Shown here: in pieces, positions 4,104 to 63,665 of the stretch | Layout: each line of letters opens with the position of its first letter | How positions within the stretch are numbered: position 1 is the stretch's first letter | Origin: Minisyncoccia bacterium | GTDB taxonomy: Bacteria; Patescibacteriota; Minisyncoccia; Phycocordibacterales; UBA9973 | Direction of reading: 5' to 3' | DNA length: 64,000 bases | NCBI GenBank assembly: GCA_049303835.1 | Contig: JBAQNN010000001.1 | Coordinates: forward strand, 1,762 to 65,761 | Notes under the pieces: generated by a model | Databases searched by the model: none | Told to the model about the DNA's origin: nothing | What the model saw: the letters and a program-made list of their open reading frames with translations, nothing else | Translations under genes and position numbers: made by a program

Positions 4104-6212
<2,109 letters not shown>

Positions 6213-6226
6213 TTGTTGATTTATGA

Positions 6227-6242
6227 GTTAACATATGTTAAC
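6227..6242. promoter_or_regulatory. 16-bp perfect palindrome GTTAACATATGTTAAC immediately upstream of the HTH/Doc operon start; candidate operator
   Basis: Read directly at 6227-6242. It lies 9 nt before the ATG at 6251, between a TTGATT -35-like hexamer (6215-6220) and a TATATAT box. There is no T-tract, so it is not a terminator. Confidence 0.35.
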
Positions 6243-6250
6243 CTATATAT

Positions 6251-6535
6251 ATGCTGAAAAATAAGCATGTTTTTGAAAAAGGAGATAAAAAATACTTTTC
6301 TGCGCCCGAAATAGCAAAATTATTGGGTATTTCTCGTACAGCTATTTTTAAAAAAATTAAATCTGGACAAATACATGCTGAAAAGATTGGCAGAAATTAC
6401 ATTATTCCGAAAGAAGAATATGAAGCTATACTAGGTATTTTTGTTCCAGAGCGACGAAAAAAAGCGATAGAAGATACTGTTGACCGAGTGTTCAAAAAAT
6501 ATGGTTCCGCGTTGCGCAAACTAGGTAAAGAATAA
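6251..6535 (+). CDS. helix-turn-helix (excisionase/MerR-like HTH_17) DNA-binding protein; putative antitoxin/regulator of the downstream Doc
   Basis: 'SAPEIAKLLGISRTAIFKKIKSGQIHAEKIG' is a typical HTH_17 signature. It is 9 nt upstream of and co-oriented with the Doc gene. Confidence 0.6.
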   Translation: MLKNKHVFEKGDKKYFSAPEIAKLLGISRTAIFKKIKSGQIHAEKIGRNYIIPKEEYEAILGIFVPERRKKAIEDTVDRVFKKYGSALRKLGKE

Positions 6536-22338: not shown

Positions 22339-22409
22339 AGCGGGGTAGAGAAGAGGCATCTCGTAAGGCTCATAACCTTAAGACTCACGTTCGATTCGTG
22401 ACCCCGCAA
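22339..22409 (+). tRNA. tRNA-Met/Ile2-type (anticodon CAT)
   Basis: Manual fold. Acceptor AGCGGGG/CCCCGCA (1:72 mismatch), D-arm GAGA-AGAGGCA-TCTC, anticodon arm TAAGG-CTCATAA-CCTTA, T-arm TCACG-TTCGATT-CGTGA. No encoded CCA. Confidence 0.7.
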
Positions 22410-22462
22410 CAAGTCCGGCCAAGTGACATGGCATGTCTAATTGTCGGATATAGTGTATAATT

Positions 22463-22535
22463 GTCGGCGTAGCTCAGTTAGTAGAGCACGGGACTCATAA
22501 GCCCGGGGTCGCAGGCGCACTCCCTGCCGCCGACA
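22463..22535 (+). tRNA. GC-rich tRNA with anticodon CAT, unusual D-loop (no GG) and T-loop (CGCACTC, no TTC)
   Basis: Manual fold. Acceptor GTCGGCG/CGCCGAC (perfect 7 bp), D-arm GCTC-AGTTAGTA-GAGC, anticodon arm CGGGA-CTCATAA-GCCCG, T-arm GCAGG-CGCACTC-CCTGC, discriminator A. A 9-nt duplicate 'AATTGTCGG' lies 15 nt upstream. Confidence 0.55.
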
Positions 22536-22561
22536 CCCTCAAAAAAGAGGAAGTGTTTAAA

Positions 22562-22584
22562 GAAAATTGTTTGCGATTGTAGCT
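22562..22584 (+). repeat. direct repeat: duplicated 5' end of tRNA-Asp plus its 5' leader
   Basis: 'AAAATTGTTTGCGATTGTAGCTG' at 22562 and 'AAAATTGTTTGCGATCGTAGCTC' at 22637 (the real tRNA start). Confidence 0.65.
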
Positions 22585-22646
22585 GTTTTGGCTAGTCTAA
22601 AACTAACAGGTCGCGATAGTAGTGTTCTTTGTTTTAAAAATTGTTT

Positions 22647-22720
22647 GCGATCGTAGCTCAACTGGTTAGAGCACTCGCCTGTCACGCGAGAGGTTGGCGG
22701 TTCAAATCCGCTCGGTCGCG
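22647..22720 (+). tRNA. tRNA-Asp (anticodon GTC)
   Basis: Manual fold. Acceptor GCGATCG/CGGTCGC, D-arm GCTC-AACTGGTTA-GAGC, anticodon arm CTCGC-CTGTCAC-GCGAG, T-arm GGCGG-TTCAAAT-CCGCT, discriminator G. Confidence 0.85.
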
Positions 22721-24343
22721 CAACATGAGATTAATTCTCTCAAATGACTTTTGAGCTTTACTGCCATTAGCTTTTTCCAGTTCCCACCCTGCGATAGCGG
22801 CCTCAATGGTATTCTTCTCTTTTGCAATCGGTTTTAGCCATTTCATACTGTCAATACTGAGTATTTTGTCTTTTACCACGCAGTTCCCACCCAGAGCTAA
22901 AAATATTTCTTTTTTAGTTTGAATGTCGCCTGCAATGAATCGTTCTCTGGCTGTTGAAGCAAAATTAAACGTCTTTTCAGTTAATTCTAGCCACTTATCA
23001 GCTCTGTTTTCTGTCTCACGAGCATTTTGTCTGAGTATTGCAATCTGCCCTTTTAGTTTCGTTTTTTCACTCAAAAACTGCTCATCATCAATGAGGTCTC
23101 GGTATCGCATTTGCGTTAATCGATCCAGTTGGCTTTGTGTTTCGTCAAGAGTTTTTTGTTGGGTGTTGGCTACTGCTGTTCTATCGCTGATTTCCTGATC
23201 ATTACTTCTTTTGATTATATCTATGGCCCAGTCTCTGAATTCGGGAGTAATGGTAATTTTTTCAAGTTCAGTTTTTATCTGACCTTCTAGCGATTTGCCG
23301 GTAGTGTAGTTATTTTGGCCACACTTACTACCCTTGTTTCTTCGCATACAATAATAATATTCGAAGGTGGCAAGCTTGCCAGTGCTTTTGATAATTTTCG
23401 TTTTTACAATCGCCGTCATACTTCCACCGCATTCACCGCAACGAATACAGCCAGTGAAAGCATGTTGATGCTTTTGAGGACGAGGCTTGCCTTTTTTGCC
23501 TAGGATTATCTGCGCTTTGTCGAATTCTTCCAGTGTGATCATCGGCTTATGGGTTCCTTCGTGCCATTCTCCTCGATATTTAAACATTCCAGTATAAAAG
23601 GCATTGGAAAAAAGCTCAAAGATACTACTGTGTCCGATTGGACCTTCGCCTCTTTTCTTTGTCTTTCGTGTTCTGAAACCCCAGACATTATTCATCATTT
23701 CAAGTATCTGAGTGGGGGAGTAGGCTTCAGAAAGAAGCATGTCCCAGGCTTTTCTGACTAAATCGAAACGATCTGGATCTACCTTGATGTAATTCTCGCC
23801 TCTGTTTTCGAATTTAGTATTTAAGTAGCCTAGTGGCGCAAGAAGCGGAGCCAGCCCTTTTGCAATCTTGCTGTTCACGCCTCTTCTGACATTTTTCTTC
23901 ATGTCTCGGATAAACTGATTAGCAGATCCAGTTTCAACACTGAGAATAAGGGCATTGTCATCTGGCAAATACTCTCGGCTCATTGTTTGGATTGATTTAA
24001 CAACTTCTTCTTGAAGTAACCATTGAATTGTCCCGCCGTCTACCGGATTGCGTGATAGTCGATTAATTTCCCAACACAAAATACCATCTGCTTCACCCGT
24101 CTTGATTCTTCGTATCATATCTTCAAAAACTTTACGCTTGAATGGTGCTTTTGCTGATTTTGATTCAAAAAGAATATCAACAATGTTAAGACCTTCATCC
24201 TTTGCCAAAATCTTTAAACTATTTATTTGATCGTCGATAGACTGGACCTGCCTTTCCGATGATTCGGAACTTTTTCTAGCATACAGGAAATATTTAATTT
24301 TACTAATTTCATTTTTCATATTATTTTCGATTAAACTTAACAT
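22682..24343 (-). CDS. large serine recombinase (phage-integrase-type resolvase/invertase family)
   Basis: N-terminal 'YLYARKSSESSERQVQSIDDQ' (catalytic Ser context Y-x-R-x-S), recombinase domain, zinc ribbon 'CIRCGECGG...YYYCMRRNKGSKCG', C-terminal coiled-coil. The last 13 codons are antisense to tRNA-Asp positions 22682-22720. Confidence 0.85.
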   Translation of the reverse strand: MLSLIENNMKNEISKIKYFLYARKSSESSERQVQSIDDQINSLKILAKDEGLNIVDILFESKSAKAPFKRKVFEDMIRRIKTGEADGILCWEINRLSRNPVDGGTIQWLLQEEVVKSIQTMSREYLPDDNALILSVETGSANQFIRDMKKNVRRGVNSKIAKGLAPLLAPLGYLNTKFENRGENYIKVDPDRFDLVRKAWDMLLSEAYSPTQILEMMNNVWGFRTRKTKKRGEGPIGHSSIFELFSNAFYTGMFKYRGEWHEGTHKPMITLEEFDKAQIILGKKGKPRPQKHQHAFTGCIRCGECGGSMTAIVKTKIIKSTGKLATFEYYYCMRRNKGSKCGQNNYTTGKSLEGQIKTELEKITITPEFRDWAIDIIKRSNDQEISDRTAVANTQQKTLDETQSQLDRLTQMRYRDLIDDEQFLSEKTKLKGQIAILRQNARETENRADKWLELTEKTFNFASTARERFIAGDIQTKKEIFLALGGNCVVKDKILSIDSMKWLKPIAKEKNTIEAAIAGWELEKANGSKAQKSFERINLMLRDRADLNRQPLA

Positions 24344-24370: not shown

Positions 24371-26365
24371 CTAGAAAGGCAAATCTTTCTGCTCCGGTGG
24401 TTGTTCTGGTAATTTTGGGGGAGTATTATCAACAACCTTTTTATCTTTTTCGACCTCTAGACCCAAACTGTCAATAAAACTATCAAGTCTAGTTTTAGGA
24501 GTATCCCCAAGATGCCTTGCTTGTTCCAAGGCGCCCACTTCTTTAAGCTGGGCATCTTCGGTGTTGAGGGCACCTTCGGGAAGTTTCCACTCCCAAAAAC
24601 CGTCTTTAAATGAAGAAGATTTTTTTGATTTAATGCCTAATTTTCCACGAGCATCTCTCAATGGTTTCGAGGTAATGCCAATTCTTTGAGCTTCCTTGAT
24701 CGCTTCGTCTGCCTTGGCTGGTCCTTCCGCTAAAAGATCAATCAAAAAATTGACAGCTTCATCGGTGGCAGTGTGTTGCTCTGTTGATTGAGAGAACGCA
24801 AGAGCTTCTTCCGTTGTAATTTCTACTGGTTCAGATTCCCAGGCAATTACGGGTTGTCCATTTTCTGCTTCAACAATAGAATAAGCAAGTCCAGTTTTAT
24901 CTTTTGCGATATTGTTTTTCAAAGGCATCAACAATCGACGCTCTGGATTTTCTTTGTCCTTCGTAACTATATAAGCAGTTCGGACAGCAGCGGTAAAGGC
25001 TAGTGAACCCATAACTCGATACGATGCATTACCTCCACTGTTTTTGTTAAGATGACTTACTAGAACAATCGCGACTTTGTGTTTTGATGCTAGTTCTGCT
25101 AAAGGTGCCAGTAGGCCTCGTATATCAGAATTATTATTACTATCTGCGCTATCCAAATACGCAGATATTGGATCAATAATAACTAGCTTACAATCTGGTA
25201 GGCTAGATAATAAATCTCCAAGCGTTGCGATGTCGCGCTTGAATGAAAACATATGCTGAGTTGATTCACTTTCAGAATCTATTATCTCTTCCTGTATTGC
25301 TTCCACTACGTGAATACGAGCACAGTCAGCCCCTGCTGCTTCAAGACGGGGCTTAATTGTATCCGCTGGATCATCCTCTGCCGATATCAATATTATGTCT
25401 CCAGTTGGAGGTATTGATTGATCAACTGGCCAAGCGTAACCTTTAGAAACATGAGCTGCCAAAGTGGCAGTAACTAGGCTTTTTCCAAGTCCTGGATCTC
25501 CTGCAACCATAGTAAGTTTTCCAAGAGCTATTCGTCCCTGCCATAACCAGCTAATCGGGACCGACTGTATATCAGTAAAGCATTTTACTATGGCTTTACC
25601 TTTACTATATTTTACCTGCGATGTATTTCTTGCTTGTATTTTGTTACTTTGAACATGCAGTCTTTTAATGCTGTCCCAAGTACTCCTTAGTTCTCTGATT
25701 GCAAGAGGTTTTGGATTTTTAGTATTCCAGATTTGCAATTGTTCCCAACCTAAAATCTCCCACAATTCTGAATCCGTAGAACTTAGAATCTTGCCTGCCA
25801 TAGAGGCCGCTGTGTCGTTTCTGGAGCCTTCAGCGACACCATTTTTACCTAATAACCACTTCTTTTCGATCTTTTCTTCTGCATTTGCTGTTTTGGTAAT
25901 CCAAGTTGGCCACTCCGAAAAATCTGAATCAGACGGGGATATTTGCCACTCGTACTCTCCCTTGTCACTTACAGATGGAGCAGCTAAAACATAACCGCCG
26001 TCTCCGCGAATATCTGTTAACTCTTTAACTCTTGTGCCATTTGGAACCTCGTAACCAGGGTGTTTGTAGTAGAGGTGAATCCCATCGCCTCCTGTTTTTG
26101 CTGTAACGGTTGGAGGATAGCCTTGACTGTTTCCACCCTTTTCGATGTCCACCACAACTATGCCAGAAATCTTTCCTGTCACTATTGCAATATTCATCGC
26201 TGGATATTTTTCAATCCACTCCTTAATTTCCTCCGGAGTTGCTCGTTTGTTTTGATACTCCTTCCAGTTGATTAATGGTTTCTTGTCTGCACCGACTGGA
26301 ATCACCGAAAATCCTCTTGCCTCATAATCTAACGCTGAATCTAAAACATTTTTCATATTTTCCAT
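24371..26365 (-). CDS. bifunctional primase-polymerase (Prim-Pol N-terminal domain) fused to AAA_25/RepA-like P-loop ATPase
   Basis: 'RGFSVIPVGADKKPLINWKEYQ' and 'VVVDIEKGG' in the Prim-Pol domain. 'LTMVAGDPGLGKSLVTATLAAH' is a Walker A, with 'ILISAEDD' downstream. Confidence 0.75.
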   Translation of the reverse strand: MENMKNVLDSALDYEARGFSVIPVGADKKPLINWKEYQNKRATPEEIKEWIEKYPAMNIAIVTGKISGIVVVDIEKGGNSQGYPPTVTAKTGGDGIHLYYKHPGYEVPNGTRVKELTDIRGDGGYVLAAPSVSDKGEYEWQISPSDSDFSEWPTWITKTANAEEKIEKKWLLGKNGVAEGSRNDTAASMAGKILSSTDSELWEILGWEQLQIWNTKNPKPLAIRELRSTWDSIKRLHVQSNKIQARNTSQVKYSKGKAIVKCFTDIQSVPISWLWQGRIALGKLTMVAGDPGLGKSLVTATLAAHVSKGYAWPVDQSIPPTGDIILISAEDDPADTIKPRLEAAGADCARIHVVEAIQEEIIDSESESTQHMFSFKRDIATLGDLLSSLPDCKLVIIDPISAYLDSADSNNNSDIRGLLAPLAELASKHKVAIVLVSHLNKNSGGNASYRVMGSLAFTAAVRTAYIVTKDKENPERRLLMPLKNNIAKDKTGLAYSIVEAENGQPVIAWESEPVEITTEEALAFSQSTEQHTATDEAVNFLIDLLAEGPAKADEAIKEAQRIGITSKPLRDARGKLGIKSKKSSSFKDGFWEWKLPEGALNTEDAQLKEVGALEQARHLGDTPKTRLDSFIDSLGLEVEKDKKVVDNTPPKLPEQPPEQKDLPF

Positions 26366-26387: not shown

Positions 26388-26918
26388 TTATAAGTTTCTA
26401 TCCTCCGGTTCGACATAGGACATACCTATCAGCCGGAATAACTCTGCTTCTTCGCGCAGTTCATATTTCTCGCCGTTACGGTATAAGTAACCGCCCGAAC
26501 TATTAAATCCATTTCGGACCCAACCATTCGCTAAAACGTAGTGGCTGTAATCCGCTGAGCCAGTTCTAATTGCCAACACAGATCCCCAATTTCCTTCTTC
26601 TGCAAAGAACAAATCGAGTTTTATTCCTTCCGGTAAAACGCGCTGAGTGTATTTACAGGGAAGTTCTCCTTTAATTTTCTTCCATTTATTAACGACACTA
26701 GCGATGCCATCTTCCAAAAGCCCCACTGAATATGGTTTTGGAATTGCCACGATTTCTATATCTTTGACCTCTGACTTTTGTCTTCGAATACTTCCAGCAA
26801 TTTCAGCGCGTATGCAATACGGCTTCAACTGCTCTAACACTTTTAACGCTATTGCTTGCGCCTCCGCTAAGGGATAGCGTTTTTCTACTACTTCATTTTT
26901 TACATTTTCTTGTTTCAT
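26388..26918 (-). CDS. minimal DNA polymerase beta-like (PolX family) nucleotidyltransferase, palm plus thumb only
   Basis: 'AGSIRRQKSEVKDIEIV' is the GS-x-RR...D-x-D/E Pol-beta signature. Third carboxylate in 'IKLDLFF'. C-terminus 'YVEPEDRNL' resembles the Pol-beta C-terminus '...REPKDRSE'. 176 aa. Confidence 0.65.
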   Translation of the reverse strand: MKQENVKNEVVEKRYPLAEAQAIALKVLEQLKPYCIRAEIAGSIRRQKSEVKDIEIVAIPKPYSVGLLEDGIASVVNKWKKIKGELPCKYTQRVLPEGIKLDLFFAEEGNWGSVLAIRTGSADYSHYVLANGWVRNGFNSSGGYLYRNGEKYELREEAELFRLIGMSYVEPEDRNL

Positions 26919-27303: not shown

Positions 27304-28374
27304 CTAGTCGTCTTCATCTTCTCTGTACACATCTGGATATTGTTCATTCAAATATTCTTTTATTCCCAGAGGATCATCTTCATCTTCCTTTTCCTCAATA
27401 ACGGTGTTCTTTGATTTTTCTTTTTTAGATTCCACTAAATCTGGTGGTGGAATTAACGTGATTTTTATTCTAAAAGATTCCATTTCTCTTTTTTGATAAG
27501 TGAATTTTTTCATTTTTTTACTGTCGTAGTCTTTATAAGACTCTGTTCTGTTGTAAGGATAAAATGGATCATATTCAATCAAAAAATAATTTTCAAGGAC
27601 TTTCGATAATATTTCTTTCTGTTTTTTGTATGCAGTTTTTGCCTCCGGGTCTCGTATAGTAAGTTCACCGTTTCGTTTTGCTAACACTTTTAAGAACGCC
27701 CAAGCTACGCTTGGTTCAGGATTTTTACCTCGTCCAATAAAACCCATTTCTCTATAAGTGGCAGTACGTTCAAATTTAAATACTTTGATCAAAACACTTT
27801 CTTCATCCAAAAATTTGATAATAAAATTTTCCCATTTTGTCCCCCTGGGTAGCTTGTGTGGAAATCGATATTTCTCTTCTTCCTTGTCATTAATTATTAT
27901 TTCTGGAGAATTTTGTTTCGTTTGAGTAAGTTCTAATGTATTTATTAACCTCCTACCTTCGCCTATTATTTCTTCTATCTCTGGTATCGGGTCTTGCATG
28001 ACAGCTACTGCAAATTCTGAAAGTTCCTTGATTTTACCGTAATTATTAGTAACCTCCTTCCTTGCGTACTCAGCATCTTTACCTTGGTCTTGTAACTCCT
28101 TTTCTGCCACAAGTAAACTTGTAAAAAGTATATAATTCTTTGATAACTCTATTTCCTTTTTGGCTATCATGGCGTCTAAATGTAATTCTTTGACTAATTT
28201 TAGTATAGTTGGCTTCAGTTCGCGTATGTAAAAAATGTTTAAATTCTTAGTTGATGGATGGGTTGGTTTGTTTAAATAATTATAAATAACATCTTTATAT
28301 AATTCATAAATATGTAAAAGGGCGTTGAGTTTTTGCTTTTGTTTTGGCTGTTTAAGATAGGATAAATATGACAT
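27304..28374 (-). CDS. hypothetical protein (356 aa), acidic C-terminus
   Basis: Long ORF with host-like codon usage, divergent from the methyltransferase gene. No recognisable motif. Confidence 0.45.
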   Translation of the reverse strand: MSYLSYLKQPKQKQKLNALLHIYELYKDVIYNYLNKPTHPSTKNLNIFYIRELKPTILKLVKELHLDAMIAKKEIELSKNYILFTSLLVAEKELQDQGKDAEYARKEVTNNYGKIKELSEFAVAVMQDPIPEIEEIIGEGRRLINTLELTQTKQNSPEIIINDKEEEKYRFPHKLPRGTKWENFIIKFLDEESVLIKVFKFERTATYREMGFIGRGKNPEPSVAWAFLKVLAKRNGELTIRDPEAKTAYKKQKEILSKVLENYFLIEYDPFYPYNRTESYKDYDSKKMKKFTYQKREMESFRIKITLIPPPDLVESKKEKSKNTVIEEKEDEDDPLGIKEYLNEQYPDVYREDEDD

Positions 28375-28484
28375 TGTTTTATTGGGATATTTATAAAGCG
28401 GGGGGAAAGTTTTTCCCGTAATTAAATTATAACAGAGATTAACCCTCCTGTGTATCTACTATTGGTTCAATTTTAAAAACTGAC

Positions 28485-29558
28485 TTGCTGCAGATTTTTT
28501 TGTTTCTTGGTATAATATACATAATGCCTAAAATATTAACTACAATTGATCTTTTTGCCGGTATCGGCGGAATCCGTAAAGGATTTGAACGAGCCGGTTT
28601 TGAAACACTCTATGCTTCGGACATAGATAAAGGGTGCAAGGTCACTTATGATGCAAATTATAAAACTACGCCTCTTACTATGGAGAGCATAATTGATATC
28701 GTTCCAAAAACTCTCCCTGATTTTGATGTTTTGCTGTCGGGATTCCCATGCCAATCTTTTTCTATGGCTGGTGGTAAGGCAGGTTTTGCGGACAAGGGAA
28801 GGGGGGATCTCTTTTTTGAAATAATGAAAGTTCTTGAAGTAAAAAAGCCACGTGTGGTATTTCTTGAAAACGTCAAACATCTAGCTAAGCATGATCATGG
28901 CCGTACTTTTATTGTCATAAAAGAGCTTCTTGAGCGTTGTGGTTATTATGTAAAATTTGCAACGATGAACAGTGCTGAATATGGTAATGTTCCGCAAAAT
29001 AGGGACCGTATATATATTGTAGGATTTTTGGATCCAAAGGCTCGTGATGCTTTTGAATTTCCATCTAAAAAAATTCTTAAAAAATCAACTGCTGATTTGT
29101 TGGAAACAGATGTGCTAGAAAAATATTATTATAAAAAAGGCTGGCTATACGATCGCATAAAAGGGCTAGGTATGAAGCAGGGGCTTGTGTATCAATGGCG
29201 TAGGGTTTATTTAAGAGAAAACAAAAGCGGACTCTGTTCTACCTTGACCGCAAATATGGGAATGGGGGGTCATAATGTTCCTTTGATCCGAGACAAAAAA
29301 GGATTGAGGCGACTTACTCCCCGCGAATGTGCTCGTTTACAGGGATTTCCTGATAGTTTTAAATTGCCAGCATCGTTGCCGGATTCTCGTTTATACAAAC
29401 AGATTGGTAATTCTGTAACAATTCCCGTAGTGGAGCGTATCGCTCACAACATTAGCCTTGCGTTAGAGACAGTTGAGAAAACACATAAAGAATACATAAA
29501 TAAAAAATATATTATGAAGCGACACTCTGTAAAACAATTAGCTGAGTTTACTGTTTAA
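28485..29558 (+). CDS. DNA (cytosine-5)-methyltransferase
   Basis: Motif I 'LFAGIGGIRKGF', motif IV 'GFPCQSFSMAG', motif VI 'ENVKHL', motif X 'QIGNSVTIPV'. Confidence 0.9.
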   Translation: MLQIFLFLGIIYIMPKILTTIDLFAGIGGIRKGFERAGFETLYASDIDKGCKVTYDANYKTTPLTMESIIDIVPKTLPDFDVLLSGFPCQSFSMAGGKAGFADKGRGDLFFEIMKVLEVKKPRVVFLENVKHLAKHDHGRTFIVIKELLERCGYYVKFATMNSAEYGNVPQNRDRIYIVGFLDPKARDAFEFPSKKILKKSTADLLETDVLEKYYYKKGWLYDRIKGLGMKQGLVYQWRRVYLRENKSGLCSTLTANMGMGGHNVPLIRDKKGLRRLTPRECARLQGFPDSFKLPASLPDSRLYKQIGNSVTIPVVERIAHNISLALETVEKTHKEYINKKYIMKRHSVKQLAEFTV

Positions 29559-29635
29559 TTTATTAACACATGTCACTTGACAAGTGAGTAGTATGGTATA
29601 AACTATTGTAATAGTATCATGCCCTTGCTAAGGGT

Positions 29636-29869
29636 GTGGTGTATGATAACATGAAAACATTAAAACGCGCTAGATTTGAACGCCTTGCGGTATATCGCAC
29701 GAATGAAGTCCTAAAACGCTTAAAGGTTCTTGGAAATTGTGGTAATCGTAGCGCATATGAATATTCCGAGGAGGAAATAAATAAAATATTTACTGAAATA
29801 GAGCGACACGTTAAAGATGCACGTGCAAAATTTCATTTCCCAAAAGGTCGTAAAGAATTTCATCTATAA
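29636..29869 (+). CDS. small hypothetical protein (77 aa) immediately upstream of the GHKL ATPase gene
   Basis: ORF ends 2 nt before the next start. Basic/helical sequence, possible regulator. Confidence 0.35.
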   Translation: MVYDNMKTLKRARFERLAVYRTNEVLKRLKVLGNCGNRSAYEYSEEEINKIFTEIERHVKDARAKFHFPKGRKEFHL

Positions 29870-29871
29870 AT

Positions 29872-31770
29872 ATGGCCAATACTTCAAACAAAAATGAAAA
29901 CAATAAGATTTTAAGTTGGCATTTCCCAGCTCTTGATCACGCTGACACAGAAGGGTTGAATGATCCACTTCTTGGATACTTTAGTGGTGACTACAATCAA
30001 AATGTTGCAAGAGAAGTAATACAGAATTCTATAGATGCACGAAACGACAGTGAACATCCGGTGTTGGTTAAATTCGAAAAACTAAAGTTGCCCACAGCAG
30101 AAATTCCAGGAATAAAAGAGTTGCAAGAGCGAATAAAAATTTGTTTAGATCAAGCCAAAAGTGAAAAAAATGATAAGGCAGAGAAACATTATCATGAAGC
30201 ATTAGAAGCTACTAAGGCTTCTCATACTGTCATTCTTAGAGCTTCCGACTACAATACTTCTGGCTTGGATGGTAATGATGATGATAAAAAGGGTAAATGG
30301 CATCGCCTTGTGAAAGCAGTTGGAGAAAATCAACTCACAGGTGCTGGTGGCGGATCATATGGAATTGGAAAGGGTGCGCCATTTGTTGCTTCACTTATGA
30401 GGACAGTTTATTACTCAACAAAAAATTCATTAGGAGAAACCATATTCCAAGGAAAAGCACGACTTCTTAGTCATCAATGGGAAAGTAAAGATTATCGTGG
30501 AGTAGGTTCTTTTGGTATTGGTGGTTATAAGTCAGTAAGAGATGTAAATGATATACCGAATTTTTTTATACGAAATGAACAAGGAACAGATATTAATATT
30601 ATTGGATACAGCCCATCATTAGCGTGGAAGGATGAACTTGCAAAATCAGTTTTAGATAATTTTTGGATGGCTATACATGCTGGTGATCTTGAGGTTATTA
30701 TAAAAGAAGGGTTGATTGATATCCACATTGATCGAGCTAGCCTACTTGGTCTTTTAGAAAAATACAGCCGAAATGATGGTCTTATTTATTATCGTACTGT
30801 AATTAATCCAACGCGAACATTTAAAAAACAACTCCCGTTACTTGGTGCTTGCACTTATTATGTGCGTATTGAAGAAAAATTTCCTAGAGAAACAGTGTAT
30901 ATGCGTCGCCCTAAAATGTGTGTAAATAAATGGCGTTTTAATAAAACACTTCATGAACCTCACGCTGGTGTATTTATTTGTGAGGATGTAGAAGGAAGTA
31001 AATTATTACGAAACCTTGAACCACCAGAACATGATGATTGGAAAGCAACACTAGAACCCCTACAAGGTAAAGAAATTTTGGATATTGTAAGGTCGTGGAT
31101 AAAAGATAGTTTGCTTGAATTGGCGGCAGACGAAAGTAATGATTCGGAAGAAGTTCCCGGACTAGAACAGTTTTTGCCGTATGATGAAGATTCTGAAAAT
31201 ACATCTCTAAATAATAAAAATAAAAGTAAACCCACAGGTTCAGCAGAATTGGATGAAGGACCACTTGAAACTGGAGCTGAACGTGAGGAAGAAGTTGATG
31301 AGGTAGAAGACTATGTTAGAAAGCCATCAAGCCAAAGACCTTCAGGTGGTAGTGGACCAGGATTTAGCCATGGTGGTGGCAGTAATGGTGGAAGTGGTGG
31401 TGGTGATAGTATTGGTGGAGACAATGACGACAGGAACGAAAATATTAAACGAATTGATACATCTTCCGTAAAATTTAGAATAATTTACACTGGACAGTCA
31501 AAAAAGGGAAATGCAGAATATTGCCTAGTTGTTCAACCTCTTGCTGATGTAGAAGGGGGCATAGAAATTGTCGCTCTTGGTAATGATTCTACGGTATATC
31601 CAATTCCACTTGCTTATGTTGAACCGTGGGACAAAAGTAATGATTCTTTTCGTGCTGAGGGGTCCTATATAAACGGATTAAATTTTAAAAAAGGAAAAAC
31701 CCAACGCATTAAAATAGGTACAATGTCTAGGTCGAGGTATGCACTAGGAATAGAAAATTATGAAAGCTAA
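29872..31770 (+). CDS. GHKL-superfamily (MORC/MutL/Hsp90-like) ATPase with unknown C-terminal region containing an acidic/Gly-rich low-complexity linker
   Basis: Bergerat N-box 'AREVIQNSIDA' (ExxxNSxDA) near the N-terminus and a G2-box-like 'TGAGGGSYGIGKGAPFVAS'. The 3' end overlaps the next gene by 11 nt. Confidence 0.65.
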   Translation: MANTSNKNENNKILSWHFPALDHADTEGLNDPLLGYFSGDYNQNVAREVIQNSIDARNDSEHPVLVKFEKLKLPTAEIPGIKELQERIKICLDQAKSEKNDKAEKHYHEALEATKASHTVILRASDYNTSGLDGNDDDKKGKWHRLVKAVGENQLTGAGGGSYGIGKGAPFVASLMRTVYYSTKNSLGETIFQGKARLLSHQWESKDYRGVGSFGIGGYKSVRDVNDIPNFFIRNEQGTDINIIGYSPSLAWKDELAKSVLDNFWMAIHAGDLEVIIKEGLIDIHIDRASLLGLLEKYSRNDGLIYYRTVINPTRTFKKQLPLLGACTYYVRIEEKFPRETVYMRRPKMCVNKWRFNKTLHEPHAGVFICEDVEGSKLLRNLEPPEHDDWKATLEPLQGKEILDIVRSWIKDSLLELAADESNDSEEVPGLEQFLPYDEDSENTSLNNKNKSKPTGSAELDEGPLETGAEREEEVDEVEDYVRKPSSQRPSGGSGPGFSHGGGSNGGSGGGDSIGGDNDDRNENIKRIDTSSVKFRIIYTGQSKKGNAEYCLVVQPLADVEGGIEIVALGNDSTVYPIPLAYVEPWDKSNDSFRAEGSYINGLNFKKGKTQRIKIGTMSRSRYALGIENYES

Positions 31771-32590
31771 AAACATATCATATCCATATCCTGTTCTAGG
31801 CAATGACGATGATGTAGAGGGTAAACTCGACGCTTCTTTTAAACACATGCTCAAGCGAGATAATATAATTCTTAAATCTCGTTTTTCACTGAAAAATAAA
31901 ACTCTCGAAAAACTCATAAAAGAAAAAAAAGCTATATATACAGTGGAAGTAGAATGTCCTAGTACTTTTTTTAGAAAACTTTTTTCTACTTTTGAGCCAG
32001 AGGCAGATTTTGTATTACCTTCAACTATAGTACGAGAACATGTTTCGGTAGGATTTTTTATTCGTGCTACCGACAATATACCAAAATATGAAATAGTTGG
32101 TTGTCATTCTGATTATAAGGGATTTAAGTTTGATGTAGGACCTGGAGATGTTTTGGCGCTTGGTGGATTTACGTCTTTTATTGCAGAAAAAGATTTTGAT
32201 CCAATGCAACCCGCTGTTTCGTCTCTTATTGCAATTAAGCAAGGGAATAATGATACAGGACCCATGGAAATAGATTATTCACAAGACAAAATTTTTATTA
32301 AACTTTCTCATAAAGACCATAAAAACTATTCGCAAATAAAAGGACAAGCAACTATTGCCGGGGTTCTGCATTCTTCTATTGTGTTGCCTGTTTTAACTGA
32401 TGCTATTCGTTTAGTTAATGAAAATAATGAAGAAACACAGGATAGACACTGGTTTCGACGTCTTGAGGTGATTTTACGACAGCAGGAACTTTCAGATGAA
32501 GATCCACTTATTAGCTCACAGAAGATTTTGCGTAGTCCAATAGAACGTTGTTTAGCAGGTCTCGTCGAAACAACCGAAGCGGATGAATAA
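31760..32590 (+). CDS. hypothetical protein (276 aa), translationally coupled to the GHKL ATPase
   Basis: Overlapping start/stop with the upstream gene. No motif recognised. Confidence 0.45.
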   Translation: MKAKNISYPYPVLGNDDDVEGKLDASFKHMLKRDNIILKSRFSLKNKTLEKLIKEKKAIYTVEVECPSTFFRKLFSTFEPEADFVLPSTIVREHVSVGFFIRATDNIPKYEIVGCHSDYKGFKFDVGPGDVLALGGFTSFIAEKDFDPMQPAVSSLIAIKQGNNDTGPMEIDYSQDKIFIKLSHKDHKNYSQIKGQATIAGVLHSSIVLPVLTDAIRLVNENNEETQDRHWFRRLEVILRQQELSDEDPLISSQKILRSPIERCLAGLVETTEADE

Positions 32591-32599
32591 AAAACAAAT

Positions 32600-33391
32600 A
32601 TGACTAATCAAAATATTTTCAAACGGATGTATGTAGCAGAACTTCGAGATAAAATACGAAGCGGAGAATCTTTGTGTGATTATTTTAAAAAAGATGTTGA
32701 ATACCCCATAGAGACTTTAATTCAATCTACAATTAAAACAGATCCAGAGAAACTTAAACTAAAATATCGTGGTAAAAACGAATCAGCAAGTAACGATCTA
32801 GAAAACGCCATAGCTTTATATGAAGCATTTCCAGACTTAACTGAAACACAGGCTTCAGACCCTAGACTTTGGACATATCTTACCCACGTTACCCTGCGAG
32901 ATTATGTATTTGCTAGATGGCCGATCGGAGGTAGTTGTGAACAGATAAAAACTGATAGCAAACAGCAAGCTACTACCATTGATTTTATACTAAGTCACTG
33001 GTTTGCTTCTGGTGGCAACGATCGTTTACTCCGTCGTAACGCAGCAGCTCGTTTATGGTGGCCAGTACATCTCACACATGCTCCATGGTTACGTGAACCA
33101 GAATTTTTTGCAGATTTAAAAACAAATGACCCGTATCGTTTCACAAAAATATTACTTTCAATGGAAAGTATTTATGCAGAGGTGCTTGAACGGGGATTAG
33201 GTCGCGACAACCGTATACTCATAACAGTCTTGGAATTTTTTGAAGCAAACAAAAGTATTAAACGAGAGCAAATTCGTAGTTTTATGAAAGAACTAAATCT
33301 TTTTCTTTCTGTTAGAAATCTCTCTTTATTGTCGAGGAAAGAGATGAAGGAAACAATATTTGATATCGGTAACACAACTCTAAAAGAATAA
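32600..33391 (+). CDS. hypothetical protein (263 aa), Trp/Arg-rich
   Basis: 9-nt gap after the previous gene, same operon. 'RLWTYLTHVTLRDYVFARW' conserved-looking block. No motif recognised. Confidence 0.45.
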   Translation: MTNQNIFKRMYVAELRDKIRSGESLCDYFKKDVEYPIETLIQSTIKTDPEKLKLKYRGKNESASNDLENAIALYEAFPDLTETQASDPRLWTYLTHVTLRDYVFARWPIGGSCEQIKTDSKQQATTIDFILSHWFASGGNDRLLRRNAAARLWWPVHLTHAPWLREPEFFADLKTNDPYRFTKILLSMESIYAEVLERGLGRDNRILITVLEFFEANKSIKREQIRSFMKELNLFLSVRNLSLLSRKEMKETIFDIGNTTLKE

Positions 33392-33467
33392 AAATGCGTG
33401 ATAGTATAAATAAAAAAGCAGGTTACCGCTCGACTGCGCGTAACCTGCTCTGATATTTTGTATTCAA

Positions 33468-33701
33468 TTAGGACCAATTACCAACTGAATAATCATAGAT
33501 AGCATCGGTAGCTTCTATCGCTGTCATATTTTCCAATTGAGACAAACGAAGTTCTTGTTCCTCTTCTTGGAAGTTAGCACAGATTATTTCTGTAAGCGTG
33601 TTTCGTTGTCTGTCCGAAATCATTTTTTCCTCACCTAAATACTTAAGAGGCCAATAGTTTCGTGGCAACTCAAAGTCAGCTGTGATTGTTTTTGTAATCA
33701 T
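33468..33701 (-). CDS. conserved small protein (77 aa), copy 1 of element right-end module
   Basis: Homologous to 61773..62012 ('MISDRQRNTLTEII' vs 'MISEGQRRTLTNLI'). Confidence 0.55.
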   Translation of the reverse strand: MITKTITADFELPRNYWPLKYLGEEKMISDRQRNTLTEIICANFQEEEQELRLSQLENMTAIEATDAIYDYSVGNWS

Positions 33702-33715
33702 AATTTTATGTTAAG

Positions 33716-34258
33716 TTAGTAATTTTTCACAAAAGATTGAATTTTTTCAGAGGCCTCATCCTTTGTGAGCAGATTAATTTGCGCCTCCCAATATTTGCGT
33801 TTACTTTCGTCAAAAACATTTGAGCGAATGAGTTCTCGGAGGTAATTTTTTTGACGATCGGAAGCGAGGTCAACTCCAATTGTTTCTTGAGTTAAAACTT
33901 CACCATTATCTTTAAGATAAAGAACGTCTAATGCTTTGACTGATTGAATAATGGAGTCAATAATTGAAGCGTTGAGCGTATAACGAACTGACCTATCTAC
34001 CCACTTATTAATTTTGCTTAAGATATTGCTACCTCTACCAATACCAAGAACTTGCGCTCCTTTCCGGATAGTGCATTTATAAGCAATGACGGGACCAGGT
34101 AGATCTTTAAGTTGAAGTACGGTTTCTTTGTCCTCCTCGATTAATAGTTCAAGGTTTAACTTGCACTCGTTTGCCTTTATGGCTTCTTGAACTGGATCTA
34201 GTTTCTGTTTCGTTTGAAATGGAGATGGAATCTCATTTTTATACATTGTTTTATTCAT
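33716..34258 (-). CDS. conserved hypothetical protein (180 aa), copy 1 of element right-end module
   Basis: Homologous to 62036..62707 ('AYKCTIRKGAQVLGIGRGSNI' vs 'AYRCILKKNGVLCGEGRGSASI'). Confidence 0.55.
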   Translation of the reverse strand: MNKTMYKNEIPSPFQTKQKLDPVQEAIKANECKLNLELLIEEDKETVLQLKDLPGPVIAYKCTIRKGAQVLGIGRGSNILSKINKWVDRSVRYTLNASIIDSIIQSVKALDVLYLKDNGEVLTQETIGVDLASDRQKNYLRELIRSNVFDESKRKYWEAQINLLTKDEASEKIQSFVKNY

Positions 34259-34425
34259 TGTTTTTTAATTTAGTGATAAGAATTTTATTTCGGGAATATT
34301 GGACTTTTATTTTTGTGCCTTCTGGAAACCCGAACTTTTCAAGAAGATGATTAGCAATAACAAGTTTACTAGTCATAGGCCTATTACCTCGATATTGATA
34401 ACTTACTGTCATTAATCGTTCCATC

Positions 34426-34749
34426 TTATTTTTTTGCTAATTCAGTGACTTGTCTATAATGGAATAGATAAACACTCTTGATTCTTTTAACAATTTTAGT
34501 CGGATCCTTTTTGTCACGTGTTTCTAACACAACAAAAGAACGGATAGCATGCTCACCTTTTTTAGGGATCATATTAAATTTCAAAATCCAATTTTTCGCC
34601 GTAAGAGTTGAGCGTAACGGATCGTAGTTACGTAATTCACTTTTGCCCCACCTGCGGCAAATTTCATCCTCAACTATAGATCTCGTTTTGGATGACCCAC
34701 TAAAATTACTTATCTCAGGACCTTCTAATATTTCTTTTATAGATTTCAT
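34426..34749 (-). CDS. conserved hypothetical protein (107 aa), copy 1 of element right-end module
   Basis: Homologous to 62893..63207 ('MKSIKEILEGPEISNFSGSSKTR' vs 'MIQSIKEILAGPKVSNWHGSEKTR'). Confidence 0.55.
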   Translation of the reverse strand: MKSIKEILEGPEISNFSGSSKTRSIVEDEICRRWGKSELRNYDPLRSTLTAKNWILKFNMIPKKGEHAIRSFVVLETRDKKDPTKIVKRIKSVYLFHYRQVTELAKK

Positions 34750-35045: not shown

Positions 35046-35200
35046 TAACTTAATAACGAAGAGAGTAGCCTAAACCTTTAGAAATAAAGGCATGGTGAAG
35101 AAAACATTTCACAGTATCAAGCTCCTAGTCAGAGCACTGTGAAATGTCGTATTCCGAAAGGTCTACGGGTCTCGCAAGAGATCGCTGGCTAGGAGCTTTA
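35046..35200 (+). ncRNA. candidate structured non-coding RNA (copy 1), unknown family
   Basis: Conserved 5' block 'AGTAGCCTAAACCTTTAGAAATAAAGGCATGGTGAAG'. Hairpin CATTTCACAGT/ACTGTGAAATG, long-range GCTCCTAGTCAG/CTGGCTAGGAGC, GNRA hairpin TCTC-GCAA-GAGA. No ORF. Its paralogue at 63.5 kb shows compensatory base changes. Confidence 0.5.
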
Positions 35201-35262
35201 TGTTCTCGGTTGGCGAACTTGAAAGCTTGACATTTTATTTAATTATAGTATAATTGATTATT

Positions 35263-38200
35263 ATGAAATTAAAAAAGTTGAGTTCATTTGTCGTAGTTGT
35301 TTTAACCTTTTCCATTGCGCTTGGCAGTTTTAACTCACCTGTCTTTGCATATGAAAAAAGTAGTGTTAATTTACAGCAAGTTAAAACCTTATCTGATAAT
35401 AGTGAAACTATTTTAAATAAATTAGATTCTATATCTAAGCCAACTAGCACCCTTTCACAAGATTTATCTAATAAAAAACAAAATTTATCAGAATCCAAAA
35501 AGAAACTAGGTACAGATTTATTGAGATTGATCGATAGTAATTTCTTATTACCAAATCAAAATCGTACCCAGGTTATATCTGAAATGAAAGGATTAAAACA
35601 GTTTGTTGCAAGTGCTGATTCTGTAAAAACTGTAGACAAAAGAGTAACCAACAAAATACATAATGATTTAGTTTATGTTTATGTAAATCTTCAACCAACA
35701 ACTTCAACTTTCGTAATTGATTCTATTGCATGGAAAGTAACTGATAGAGATGAAAAAAATCATTTAGCAGTTGCTTTAGTCGAGGTTAATAAATTAGAAA
35801 CACTTGCTTCGTTAAAGGGAGTAAAATCAGTTAGTTTAGTTTTGCCACCGGTTACTAGAAGTGGCTCTGTTGTTACAGAAGGAGATTTAATTCATCAAAC
35901 TGATGATGTTCGAAATACTTATTCTCAAGGAGGAGCTGGAATGAAAATTGGAGTTATTTCTGACGGGGTTGATAATCTCGCTTCTGCACAAACTAGTGGT
36001 GATTTGCCACCAGCTGTAACGGTTCTTAGTAATTTTGAGGGAGGTGATGAAGGTACTGCGATGTTAGAGATTATTCACGATATGGTACCAAATGCCAGTC
36101 TTTATTTTCATGATGCTGGTAGTAATGTGATAGCCTTTAACTCCGCTATTGACGCTTTAATTGCGGCAGGTGCCAATGTTATTGTTGATGATGTTGGCTG
36201 GATAACCGAACCATTTTTTGAAGATGGGACAGTAGCTTCGCATGTTGCCTCTGTGTTGGCGGTAAATAATATTGTTTATGTTTCATCTGCTGGGAATAAC
36301 GCCGAAGAACACTATCAAGGAATTTTTAATGACAATGGAAGTGGATGGCATGATTTTAGTGCAGGTTTGAATCAGGTTCTTTTGGTCTCTGTGCCCAACG
36401 GAGGTTCTATAATACCTATTTTGCAGTGGAATGATAGTTTTGGATCGTCTTCAAATGATTACGATTTATATTTAGTCAACCAATCTTCAGGAGCCCTTTT
36501 GGATGCAAGTGAAAGCGTCCAGAACGGTGATGACGACCCTTTTGAAGGAGTTATATATACAAATATAAGCGGAAGCACAATTCCAGTGGGTATTTATGTT
36601 AATAAATTTTCTGGTGTTGCAAAAACCCTAGAATTATTTATAAATCCAAAAGATGGTGCAGTTGTTAGTCCAACCAATATAACGGGCGTAGACTCTATTT
36701 TTGGTCATGCAGCAGTACCAGGAGTAATAACAGTAGGAGCTATTAATGCTAACGATCCTGGTAATGATACGATAGAACCTTTTTCTTCGCAGGGTCCTGT
36801 AACTATAATTGGTCAAGCTCAAAGAGCAAAAACAGACATAACAGGTATTGATTGTGTATCAACTTCTGCAGCAATACCTATTGCAACAGGATTACATCCT
36901 TTTTGTGGCACAAGTGCGGCTGCCCCTGCGGTGGCTGCTATTGTTGCTCAATTATGGGGACAATACCCTACAGCAACGGGTACTCAAATAAAAAATCACA
37001 TATTAAATTCAGCAGTAGAATTAGGTACAGCTGGGACCGATTCTATCTTTGGACACGGACGAGCTGATTCGCTTCTTTCTTTTCAAACTGGTCCGACAAT
37101 TGCTTCATTTAATTTTACAACCCCAGCAGTCACAGGTGTTATTAATGAAAATGCAAAAACAATTTCACTAACTGTACCTTACGGAACTAATATCACTGCC
37201 CTTGTACCAACGATTGCAGTTTCTGCTGGGACTTCAGTTGGTCCACTTTCTGGTGTAGCTCAAGATTTTTCTAGTCCTGTAATTTATACAGCCACTTCTG
37301 TGGATGGTTTAATTAAGTCTTATACAGTAACAGTTACAGTCACTCCTAATCCTGCAAAAGCAATCACTTCTTTTGATTTTACAGCTCCAACCGCAACAGG
37401 AGTTATTGATGAGAGTGCTAAAACGATTTCTTTGACAGTACCTTTTGGAACTAATGTAACTGCACTTGTTCCAACAATAGAAATTACTGGAGCATCAATT
37501 GTTCCTAATACTGGAATAGCTAATAATTTTACAACTCTACAAACTTATACAGTTACTGCTTTGGATAGTTCAACTCAAGCTTATGTAGTAACTGTAGCTT
37601 TTGATACTGATCCAGACATTGCCAAAGTGGCTACTGACAAAGCTGCACTAGTGGATAGTTTAATTCAAGGGGCAAACGCTGATTTATCAAATATAACAAC
37701 AACACTTACAAGTCCATTACCAGCTCTTGGAACTATTAATGGTTCAACAATAACATGGGCATCAAATACTCCTTCTGTTGTTTCAAATGATGGACAAACA
37801 GTAGTGAGACCAGCTTTTGGAAATGCAAATGCCACAGTAATTTTAACCGCAACAATAACTAAAGGTGTTGTAACCGATACAAAAACATTTACACTAACAG
37901 TGCTTGCAGAAACACTAAACCCAGATATTGCATTTGTTGCTTCTGACAAAGCATCTTTAGTAGATGATTCTATTAAAGGAGGAAATTCTGATTTATCAAA
38001 TATTGAAGTAGCTCTTACAGATCCATTACCATCACTTGGAGCTAATGGTTCAACTATCACTTGGTTATCAAGTGATTCAGCTGTTGTTTCAAACAATGGA
38101 CAGACAATCAATAGGCCAGCTTTTGCAGATGGAAATGCAACTATTACTATGACTGCCACTATCACAAAAGGTGTCATTACTGATACGAAAGTATTCACAT

Positions 38201-63502: not shown

Positions 63503-63665
63503 CAATTTAATAAATCAGTAGCCTAAACCTTTAGCAAAAAAGGCATGGTGAAAGAAATCTCGTCAGAGTCAAAAAACCTATCATATAGGGTTTACTCTGA
63601 CGAGTCATATCTGGAAACAGGTATGGAGGACGCAAGTTCTCACCTATGTGGTAGGTTTTTTGCGT
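63503..63665 (+). ncRNA. candidate structured non-coding RNA (copy 2)
   Basis: Same conserved 5' block 'AGTAGCCTAAACCTTTAGCAAAAAAGGCATGGTGAAAG'. Hairpin TCTCGTCAGAGT/ACTCTGACGAG (compensatory relative to copy 1), GCAA-capped hairpin GGAC-GCAA-GTTC, terminal hairpin ACCTA-TGTGG-TAGGT plus TTTTTT. Confidence 0.5.

Follow-up and report, generated by a model that had tools for sequence, protein, structure and literature searches.

Organization of the locus

The stretch analyzed here (the window) comprises 64,000 nucleotides of a Minisyncoccia bacterium (Patescibacteriota; GenBank assembly GCA_049303835.1, contig JBAQNN010000001.1, positions 1,762 to 65,761 of the forward strand). At 28485-33391 it harbors a locus of five open reading frames (ORFs), which encode a C5-cytosine methyltransferase, a small protein (s), and three larger proteins (A, B, and C). 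All five ORFs lie on the plus strand (Table 1). Our ORF check of the window reproduced exactly the positions, A/B overlap, and B-C gap of an earlier note that had been made from the bare sequence without database searches. The gene for s ends 2 nt upstream of A, A and B overlap by 11 nt, and B and C are separated by 9 nt; the 11-nt overlap is seen again in most of the closest related loci.

Two of the genes probably start inside the ORF as called. For the methyltransferase, ATG 28524 is the most likely start (MPKILTT..., giving 28524..29558), because a -35/-10-like pair falls within the first codons of the ORF that is open from TTG. For s, the alignment with 42 homologues makes ATG 29651 the most likely start (MKTLKRARFERL..., giving 29651..29869), which would correspond to a protein of about 72 amino acids (aa).

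Table 1. Features of the locus and of the surrounding integrative element (window coordinates; HMM, hidden Markov model; AF2, AlphaFold2).
Feature	Position	Strand	Description
Methyltransferase ORF	28485-29558	+	357 aa, open from TTG 28485
Promoter-like site and operator-like palindromes	29573..29615	+	gap between methyltransferase and s; best promoter-like match in 28300-33800
Small ORF (s)	29636-29869	+	77 aa as called
Protein A (PDC-M33A)	29872-31770	+	632 aa; PADLOC HMM, AF2 model, alignment
Protein B (PDC-M33B)	31760-32590	+	276 aa; PADLOC HMM, model, alignment
Protein C (PDC-M33C)	32600-33391	+	263 aa; PADLOC HMM, Pfam DUF6339 (PF19866), alignment
tRNA-Asp	22647-22721	+	one end of the integrative element
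Large serine recombinase	22682-24343	-	3' end overlaps tRNA-Asp
Prim-pol/AAA_25 gene	24371-26365	-	next after the recombinase
Pol-beta-like gene	26388-26918	-	next after the prim-pol gene
356-aa ORF	27304-28374	-	divergent from the methyltransferase

A, B, and C are the catalogued candidate PDC-M33

In the order A>B>C, the three adjacent same-strand genes match the PADLOC HMMs M33A (4.1e-119; residues 15-631 against positions 4-625 of the 627-position HMM), M33B (9.8e-64), and M33C (6.4e-36) over their full length, which is the arrangement by which PDC-M33 is recognized. PDCs are genes found nested within BREX, DISARM, or type I restriction-modification (R-M) loci; Payne et al (2024; bioRxiv 10.1101/2024.01.29.577857) identified them through "guilt-by-embedding" and curated them to 145 candidates, which they list as untested. 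There, PDC-M33 is cassette CAS_00129, with three families and 98 instances in RefSeq v209. The locus thus adds a member to a candidate family that is already catalogued. The earlier note had described a methylase-linked mobile module built around a GHKL/MORC-like fold, a picture that stands; its label "undescribed" does not, as the A-B-C core was already deposited in PADLOC-DB. Its statement that the locus is not BREX, DISARM, Dnd/Ssp, or type I-IV R-M holds and extends to Mza. PADLOC gives PDC-M33 alone for A, B, and C, and for the five proteins together it returned generic C5-methyltransferase and PDC-M33 matches only, with none of the signature proteins PglZ/BrxC, DrmA/B, MzaB-E, DndA-E, or SspA-D.

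Full-text literature searches returned no mention of PDC-M33 or of DUF6339, the Pfam family of protein C, and two papers with tests of other PDCs omit PDC-M33. Likewise, searches on GHKL with cytosine methyltransferase and anti-phage, and on MORC with phage, returned no characterization of such a system. The GHKL protein of the Vibrio WASA paper was considered as a relative and discarded, being an unrelated Shedu fusion. New here are the assignment of a fold to M33A, the extension of the gene set by the C5 methyltransferase, Vsr, and s, and the finding that serine-recombinase elements carry the cassette in Patescibacteria.

The methyltransferase is a complete C5-cytosine enzyme

Every catalytic motif of a C5-cytosine methyltransferase is present, and the protein matches PF00145 (4.8e-82), TIGR00675 (5.8e-92), and PADLOC MTase_II (3e-110). 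Its closest known enzyme is M.HhaI (E 2e-55 over residues 18-327). The Dcm-type assignment made from motifs is thereby borne out for the full-length protein by Pfam, NCBIfam-type, and M.HhaI matches, and by the Pfam, PADLOC, and M.HhaI matches the enzyme qualifies as the cognate methyltransferase of a type II R-M system. No restriction endonuclease (REase) model of Pfam or PADLOC is matched by s, A, B, C, or the flanking 356-aa ORF in the window.

Protein A is predicted to be a GHKL-S5 ATPase

Sequence-profile searches against Pfam, NCBIfam, and PDB chains gave no match for A, and in a permissive Pfam scan of the alignment members HATPase_c_3 matched 2/40 relatives weakly (best E 0.0024). The fold and the conserved motifs, in contrast, are clear. 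In the AF2 model (mean pLDDT 78.9; confident at residues 12-435 and 525-630), an ATPase module composed of GHKL and S5 domains (residues ~12-435) is followed by a disordered acidic/Gly-rich linker (436-524) and a beta-rich C-terminal domain (525-632). Fold matches include SMCHD1 (score 19.0), MORC3 (18.8), MORC2 (16.1), MutL (15.0), ParE (14.9), and Topo VI-B (13.4), with aligned lengths of about 260-306 residues. Across 40 homologues, the N-box residues E48/N52/D55, the motif D126-x-N128-T129-x-G131-x-x-G134, and the lid residues G161/G164/G166-K167 are invariant. A therefore combines a predicted Bergerat fold with the GHKL motifs I-IV (ExxxNxxD, DxGxG-like, G-rich lid, GT). Modeling thus identifies A as a MORC/MutL-like GHKL ATPase, and the GHKL/MORC-like call of the earlier note was right because fold and motif conservation support it, although profile searches do not.

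A second invariant cluster, C370...E383-P-P-x-H387-D, is located toward the end of the modeled S5 domain, with E383-P-P-x-H387 present in 40/40 members. Further invariant residues in the 370-390 region are G375, L379, and W390. The cluster is the sole candidate catalytic center noticed in A and could be a metal or substrate site. A regular-expression search for the MORC-specific S5 motif GhXhhpXXRhl found it in 0/40 relatives of A. The MutL endonuclease motif DQHA(X)2E(X)4E likewise occurs in 0/40, and the MutL profile had no match in NCBIfam or Pfam.

Proteins B and C

B is modeled as an N-terminal beta-sandwich followed by a C-terminal helical bundle, and its residues P9, P11, D17, D18, D118, and H204 are invariant. 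It matches no known family, and the model shows no nuclease or other catalytic fold. C belongs to DUF6339 (Pfam 1.3e-40), carries the motif QASDPRLWTYLTH, and has as invariant residues D66, R146, R151-L-W-W154, T159, T182, E197, and G201; in one homologue it is fused to a DnaA-type helix-turn-helix (HTH). A HEPN-like Rx5H motif in C (R151...H157) was rejected, since H157 varies among homologues.

Profiles of A, B, and C matched none of the PDB chains, and neither s nor any of these three proteins had an NCBIfam match. When all members of the A, B, and C alignments were scanned permissively against Pfam, only DUF6339 and the two weak HATPase_c_3 matches emerged. The earlier note had found nothing recognizable in the downstream proteins; DUF6339 and the PDC-M33 HMMs correct this.

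A-B-C is an ordered unit linked to C5 methyltransferases across phyla

A genome scan with one genome per species yielded 277 relatives of A, of which the best 80 loci were counted. An independent scan of metagenomes centered on C yielded 318 relatives and 80 loci, counted wherever a locus was informative. The 80 genome loci come from Patescibacteria, Bacteroidota, Planctomycetota, Acidobacteriota, Verrucomicrobiota, Bacillota, Deinococcota, Thermotogota, Chlamydiota, Elusimicrobiota, and others, and the overall spread exceeds 10 phyla. Within them A-B-C is an invariant ordered unit, with B found in 69 and C in 67 loci. A C5 methyltransferase accompanies the unit in 70 loci, a homologue of s detected by HMM lies directly upstream of A in 50, and Vsr (PF03852) is present in 38. 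Six of the 10 loci without a methyltransferase end at a contig edge right at A. The metagenome loci agree: B is found in 53/54 informative loci, A in 33/35, the C5 methyltransferase in 27/28, s directly upstream of A in 21/28, and Vsr in 19/28. Conservation of the neighborhood, which the earlier note had proposed as a check, is thus evident from the co-occurrence with C5 methyltransferases in both scans.

Gene order varies around this unit. Patescibacteria typically have MT-(Vsr)-s-A-B-C (MT, methyltransferase); Bacteroidota have Vsr-MT-s-A-B-C, or s-A-B-C with MT and Vsr coming after it on the other strand; Planctomycetota and Acidobacteriota have MT-A-B-C-(Vsr); and two loci show s-MT-A-B-C-Vsr. 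Co-divergence with A, calculated from pairwise identities, is high for B (Spearman 0.83) and C (0.75) and lower for the methyltransferase (0.50). These sequence comparisons point to A-B-C as a tightly co-evolving core and to the methyltransferase as a more freely exchanged partner.

Most loci with an adjoining C5 methyltransferase have no other restriction enzyme near. In a minority, a classical enzyme lies by the methyltransferase: NgoFVII-like in 5 loci, BpuJI/AlwI-like in 3 loci and on a Planococcus plasmid, PADLOC REase_II in 2 loci, and EcoRII-like on a Paenarthrobacter plasmid. A distant Lactobacillales branch has N6 systems and no C5 methylase as neighbors. In L. salivarius, A-B-C sits between type I hsdS-hsdM and an MmeI-like methylase with a DEAD/DEAH-box helicase gene (possibly hsdR), while in L. 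lactis it is found next to AbiG, with two D12 methylases and an AlwI-family enzyme as neighbors. In a temperate phage of Clostridium innocuum, s-A-B-C and a C5 methylase lie beside the integrase. On lactococcal and other plasmids the family adjoins AbiG, Shedu, AlwI, EcoRII, or type I R-M genes. A search of IMG/VR yielded 7 relatives only.

Two additional proteins were noticed among these loci (L numbers are our labels). Directly downstream of C, loci L008, L009, and L021 encode a DUF6119 protein of ~590 aa, which may be another defense gene in the same cargo slot. On a Deinococcus actinosclerus plasmid (L084), a 381-aa protein with a NOV_C/TmtA-like C-terminal domain (5145-6290, minus strand) sits between MT-Vsr and s-A-B-C; it was not seen in other loci.

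A conserved small protein and a putative operator

The earlier note had listed the 77-aa ORF, which is present as described, but had missed that it is a conserved fourth component. Its product has the motif K/RRxRFxRLAxxRxxxVLxxLxxLGNCxNRxxYxY, belongs to no known family, and matches no HTH or Xre profile. Homologues of s also lie directly upstream of A in the Clostridium innocuum phage and on three plasmids, and in lineages without s no fusion of s to the methyltransferase or to A was found. s is possibly a regulator or a complex subunit.

The promoter-like site between methyltransferase and s consists of TTGACA (29577) and TAAACT with a spacing of 16 nt. The palindrome TCACTTGACAAGTGA (29573-29587) overlaps this site, and a second one, ACTATTGTAATAGT (29602-29615), comes after it. 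The equivalent place upstream of the s gene in related loci likewise holds a TTGACA box with palindromes, often ATGTAAATA...TATTTACAT. As an inverted repeat ATGTAAATA-N-TATTTACAT, the latter stands by the TTGACA box ~30-80 nt upstream of the s gene in many Patescibacteria loci (L004, L010, L015, L016, L018, L019, L021, and others); the window and L001 have ACTATT-N-AATAGT in its place. Judged by their sequence, the upstream inverted repeats look like a family of operators, and a regulatory function of the 29573-29615 site is suggested.

The locus is cargo of a serine-recombinase element

The locus lies on an integrative element, one end of which is marked by tRNA-Asp and a large serine recombinase (Table 1). 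The earlier note had placed the locus in the cargo of such an element, in agreement with the overlap of the recombinase ORF and tRNA-Asp, which recurs at tRNA-Asp in L002 (4135-4174) and at tRNA-Gln in L004 (4219-4249). In the window (22682-22721) and in these two loci, the final 31-40 nt of the adjoining tRNA gene are covered by the recombinase ORF in antisense orientation, which suggests that the element end carries a tRNA 3' segment. Homologues of the window recombinase occur in 18 related loci, while the remaining backbone genes are not shared; therefore, the cassette travels with this serine-recombinase type on varied backbones. At the far boundary, no second copy of the tRNA-Asp 3' end was found, and the right end may lie somewhere at ~34.8-35.2 kb.

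The 356-aa ORF was considered as a hidden restriction enzyme and rejected, having neither a Pfam or PADLOC match nor homologues in related loci. Three small ORFs downstream of C (33468-34749, minus strand) match no family. Both the 356-aa ORF and these three appear to be element-specific genes, as there are almost no homologues in related loci. Vsr is not present anywhere in the window.

In the tRNA cluster at 22339-22721, tRNA-Met and tRNA-Asp are accompanied by a third tRNA (22463-22535), found by Rfam and missed by ARAGORN, and by a truncated duplicate of the 5' region of tRNA-Asp (22563-22595), which is 82% identical to 22637-22669. The plus strand of the window also has two LOOT RNAs of Rfam RF03000 (gathering score 46.4), one at 35067-35183 (82 bits), just upstream of the gene for a 1801-aa subtilisin-like surface protein (35254-40659), and one at 63520-63641 (87.5 bits).

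A proposed R-M-like, methylation-gated defense module

The locus is the common full form of PDC-M33, and its methyltransferase and downstream genes are a conserved, functionally linked module on a mobile element. Beyond this, we infer a defense role with methylation as self mark, formation of a complex, a role for s, and the nature of the effector, and we tentatively read the whole as an R-M-like, methylation-gated defense module. The C5 methyltransferase would be expressed from its own promoter and mark resident DNA with 5-methylcytosine. It would be followed by a separately promoted, translationally coupled operon s-A-B-C, the products of which would form an ATP-driven complex that acts on DNA without this mark. 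By analogy with MutL, MORC, and SMCHD1, A may dimerize on ATP via its N-terminal module and, held by its C-terminal domain across the long flexible linker, clamp or loop DNA. B and/or C could supply recognition of DNA or of its methylation state as well as effector activity; the effector could reside in the invariant C...ExxxHD cluster of A's S5 domain or in DUF6339. Finally, s may delay expression by binding to the palindromes at the operon promoter, as controller proteins of R-M systems do.

A unit tied to methylation and defense is suggested by the C5 linkage across phyla, the usual absence of another REase, and the mobile, prophage, and plasmid contexts with separate, possibly regulated expression. 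These contexts are those of defense cargo, since they include serine-recombinase elements at tRNA sites, an integrase-proximal prophage locus, and plasmids on which the family lies beside AbiG, Shedu, and R-M genes. The same reading is favored by the origin of the candidate that A, B, and C match, whose genes were recognized within BREX, DISARM, or type I R-M systems, and by the association of paraMORC GHKL families with cytosine methylases, Vsr, and R-M operons described by Iyer et al (2008). Moreover, the weaker co-divergence of the methyltransferase is as expected, because a specificity or marking module would be exchangeable.

Several observations weigh against methylation-gated defense. 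Neither the profile scans of s, A, B, and C nor the model of B reveals an effector domain such as a nuclease, and no experimental test of PDC-M33 was found in the searchable literature. Two Deinococcus loci have A-B-C without a methyltransferase in the available flanks. The fairly free exchange of the methyltransferase is a weak point, its co-divergence with A falling to 0.20 among distant pairs. A type II REase already adjoins the same methyltransferase in ~10 genome loci and on several plasmids, where A-B-C does not simply take the place of an absent restriction subunit. Furthermore, the near-exclusive link to C5, not N6, methyltransferases in the main branch is not predicted by generic R-M logic.

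This C5 preference, together with the frequent presence of Vsr and the MutL-like layout of A (ATPase module, disordered linker, C-terminal domain), lends some weight to a role in DNA repair, which we nevertheless consider unlikely. A-B-C would then help to repair 5-methylcytosine damage: A, with B and C, would find T:G mismatches that arise from deamination of 5-methylcytosine, or other lesions made by the methyltransferase, and activate the Vsr nickase as MutL does for E. coli Vsr. Methyltransferase, Vsr, and s-A-B-C would together offset the mutagenic cost of a cytosine methylase. Stimulation of Vsr by MutL is already known (cited in Iyer et al, 2008; PMC2292703), and Vsr, where present in the cluster (38/80 and 19/28 loci), sometimes occupies the far end of the operon (MT-A-B-C-Vsr). 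A repair function would also agree with the lack of a recognizable nuclease in A, B, and C themselves, with the retention of A-B-C in loci that already hold a restriction enzyme, and with the exchange of the methyltransferase independently of A-B-C. Against it stand the lack of Vsr in the window, as in about half of the loci, and the distant members that adjoin N6-adenine systems without a C5 methylase (two D12 methylases and AlwI in L. lactis, type I in L. salivarius). No mismatch-recognition domain was detected in the proteins. In addition, the family occurs in defense islands, at prophage moron positions, and on phage-resistance plasmids, and PDC-M33 was itself found embedded in defense systems.

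That embedding, with PDC-M33 defined as three genes without a methyltransferase, could also fit a stand-alone defense module that is merely nested beside methylase or R-M genes and needs the neighboring methyltransferase neither for function nor for self-protection; it could be abortive-infection-like or sense DNA topology. The distant members within a type I R-M locus or beside N6-adenine AlwI-type R-M, the two Deinococcus loci, the weak co-divergence of the methyltransferase at depth, and the own promoter-like site of s-A-B-C all point this way. Yet a C5 methyltransferase immediately adjoins A-B-C in ~90% of loci from many phyla, usually on the same strand, and sometimes abuts A directly or is inserted between s and A (s-MT-A-B-C). 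This linkage is far above ordinary clustering in defense islands, which would give varied neighbors, and independence from the methyltransferase is accordingly doubtful. That the genes are chance neighbors or a decaying locus has nothing in its favor beyond the absence of experimental data. The five ORFs are intact and tightly spaced, their order is conserved, and purifying selection is evident across hundreds of loci; conservation thus effectively refutes a non-functional locus.

A variant of methylation-gated defense dispenses with cutting. Here, a MORC/SMCHD1-like clamp, guided by B and/or the DUF6339 protein, would compact or block DNA that lacks the resident 5-methylcytosine pattern. We regard such a nuclease-free mechanism as improbable; if true, it would be a prokaryotic counterpart, and possibly an ancestor, of methylation-linked MORC silencing in eukaryotes.

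With these results PDC-M33 gains a concrete anatomy, with a MORC/MutL-type GHKL-S5 ATPase as its predicted signature protein. Instead of three genes, its natural unit comprises four to six (A, B, C, the small protein, a C5 methyltransferase, and optionally Vsr); it is spread over many phyla and in Patescibacteria is carried by tRNA-targeting serine-recombinase elements. If methylation-gated defense without a classical nuclease is true, the module would introduce a new effector logic for R-M-like immunity and bear on the proposed R-M origin of eukaryotic MORC ATPases, whereas a helper of Vsr repair would represent a new, mobile, MutL-like repair module.

Comparison with known systems

The window has the same three-family cassette in the same order as PDC-M33. 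In contrast to the three-gene definition, a C5 methyltransferase joins the cassette in the window and in ~90% of related loci, the conserved 72-aa protein does so in most, and Vsr in many. Neither these added genes nor the GHKL-S5 fold of M33A appear in the main text and supplementary cassette table of Payne et al (2024).

With Mza (Gao et al, 2020), BREX, and DISARM the locus shares the combination of a methyltransferase, an ATPase, and proteins of unknown function, and BREX has no obvious nuclease either. Eukaryotic MORC, SMCHD1, and bacterial MutL differ from A in sequence (9-12% identity) and in the C-terminal domain, A having no CW, hinge, or coiled-coil domains.

Closer in organization are type II R-M systems with controller and Vsr (HhaI- and EcoRII-type). 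They share the M.HhaI-like methyltransferase, the mobile cassette, the often attached Vsr, the separate promoter-like sites for methyltransferase and other module, and a small upstream protein with palindromes over the promoter-like site, which resemble controller-protein operators. The locus differs in having an ATPase and two unknown proteins instead of a recognizable restriction endonuclease, and in a small protein that lacks any HTH or Xre profile match; some relatives carry a true REase in addition.

The paraMORC families of GHKL proteins described by Iyer et al (2008; PMC2292703) are linked to cytosine methylases, Vsr, and R-M operons, and an ExxxH in the C-terminal part of S5 is the signature of R-M-associated paraMORC2. 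Our comparison with paraMORC2 is by published description and signature. The partners stressed by Iyer et al, SF-II helicases and RE-fold proteins, are missing from the locus, which has B and DUF6339 instead. Moreover, paraMORC2 was described mainly from cyanobacteria and Gram-positives, whereas the A family is widest in Patescibacteria, Bacteroidota, and Planctomycetota. On the other hand, A is a predicted GHKL and S5 ATPase with intact ATP motifs, its E383-P-P-x-H387 carries the ExxxH in 40/40 members, cytosine methylase (DCM) and Vsr neighbors are present, and the distribution is sporadic and laterally mobile. It is probable that the PDC-M33 family and the paraMORC2 context described by Iyer et al overlap.

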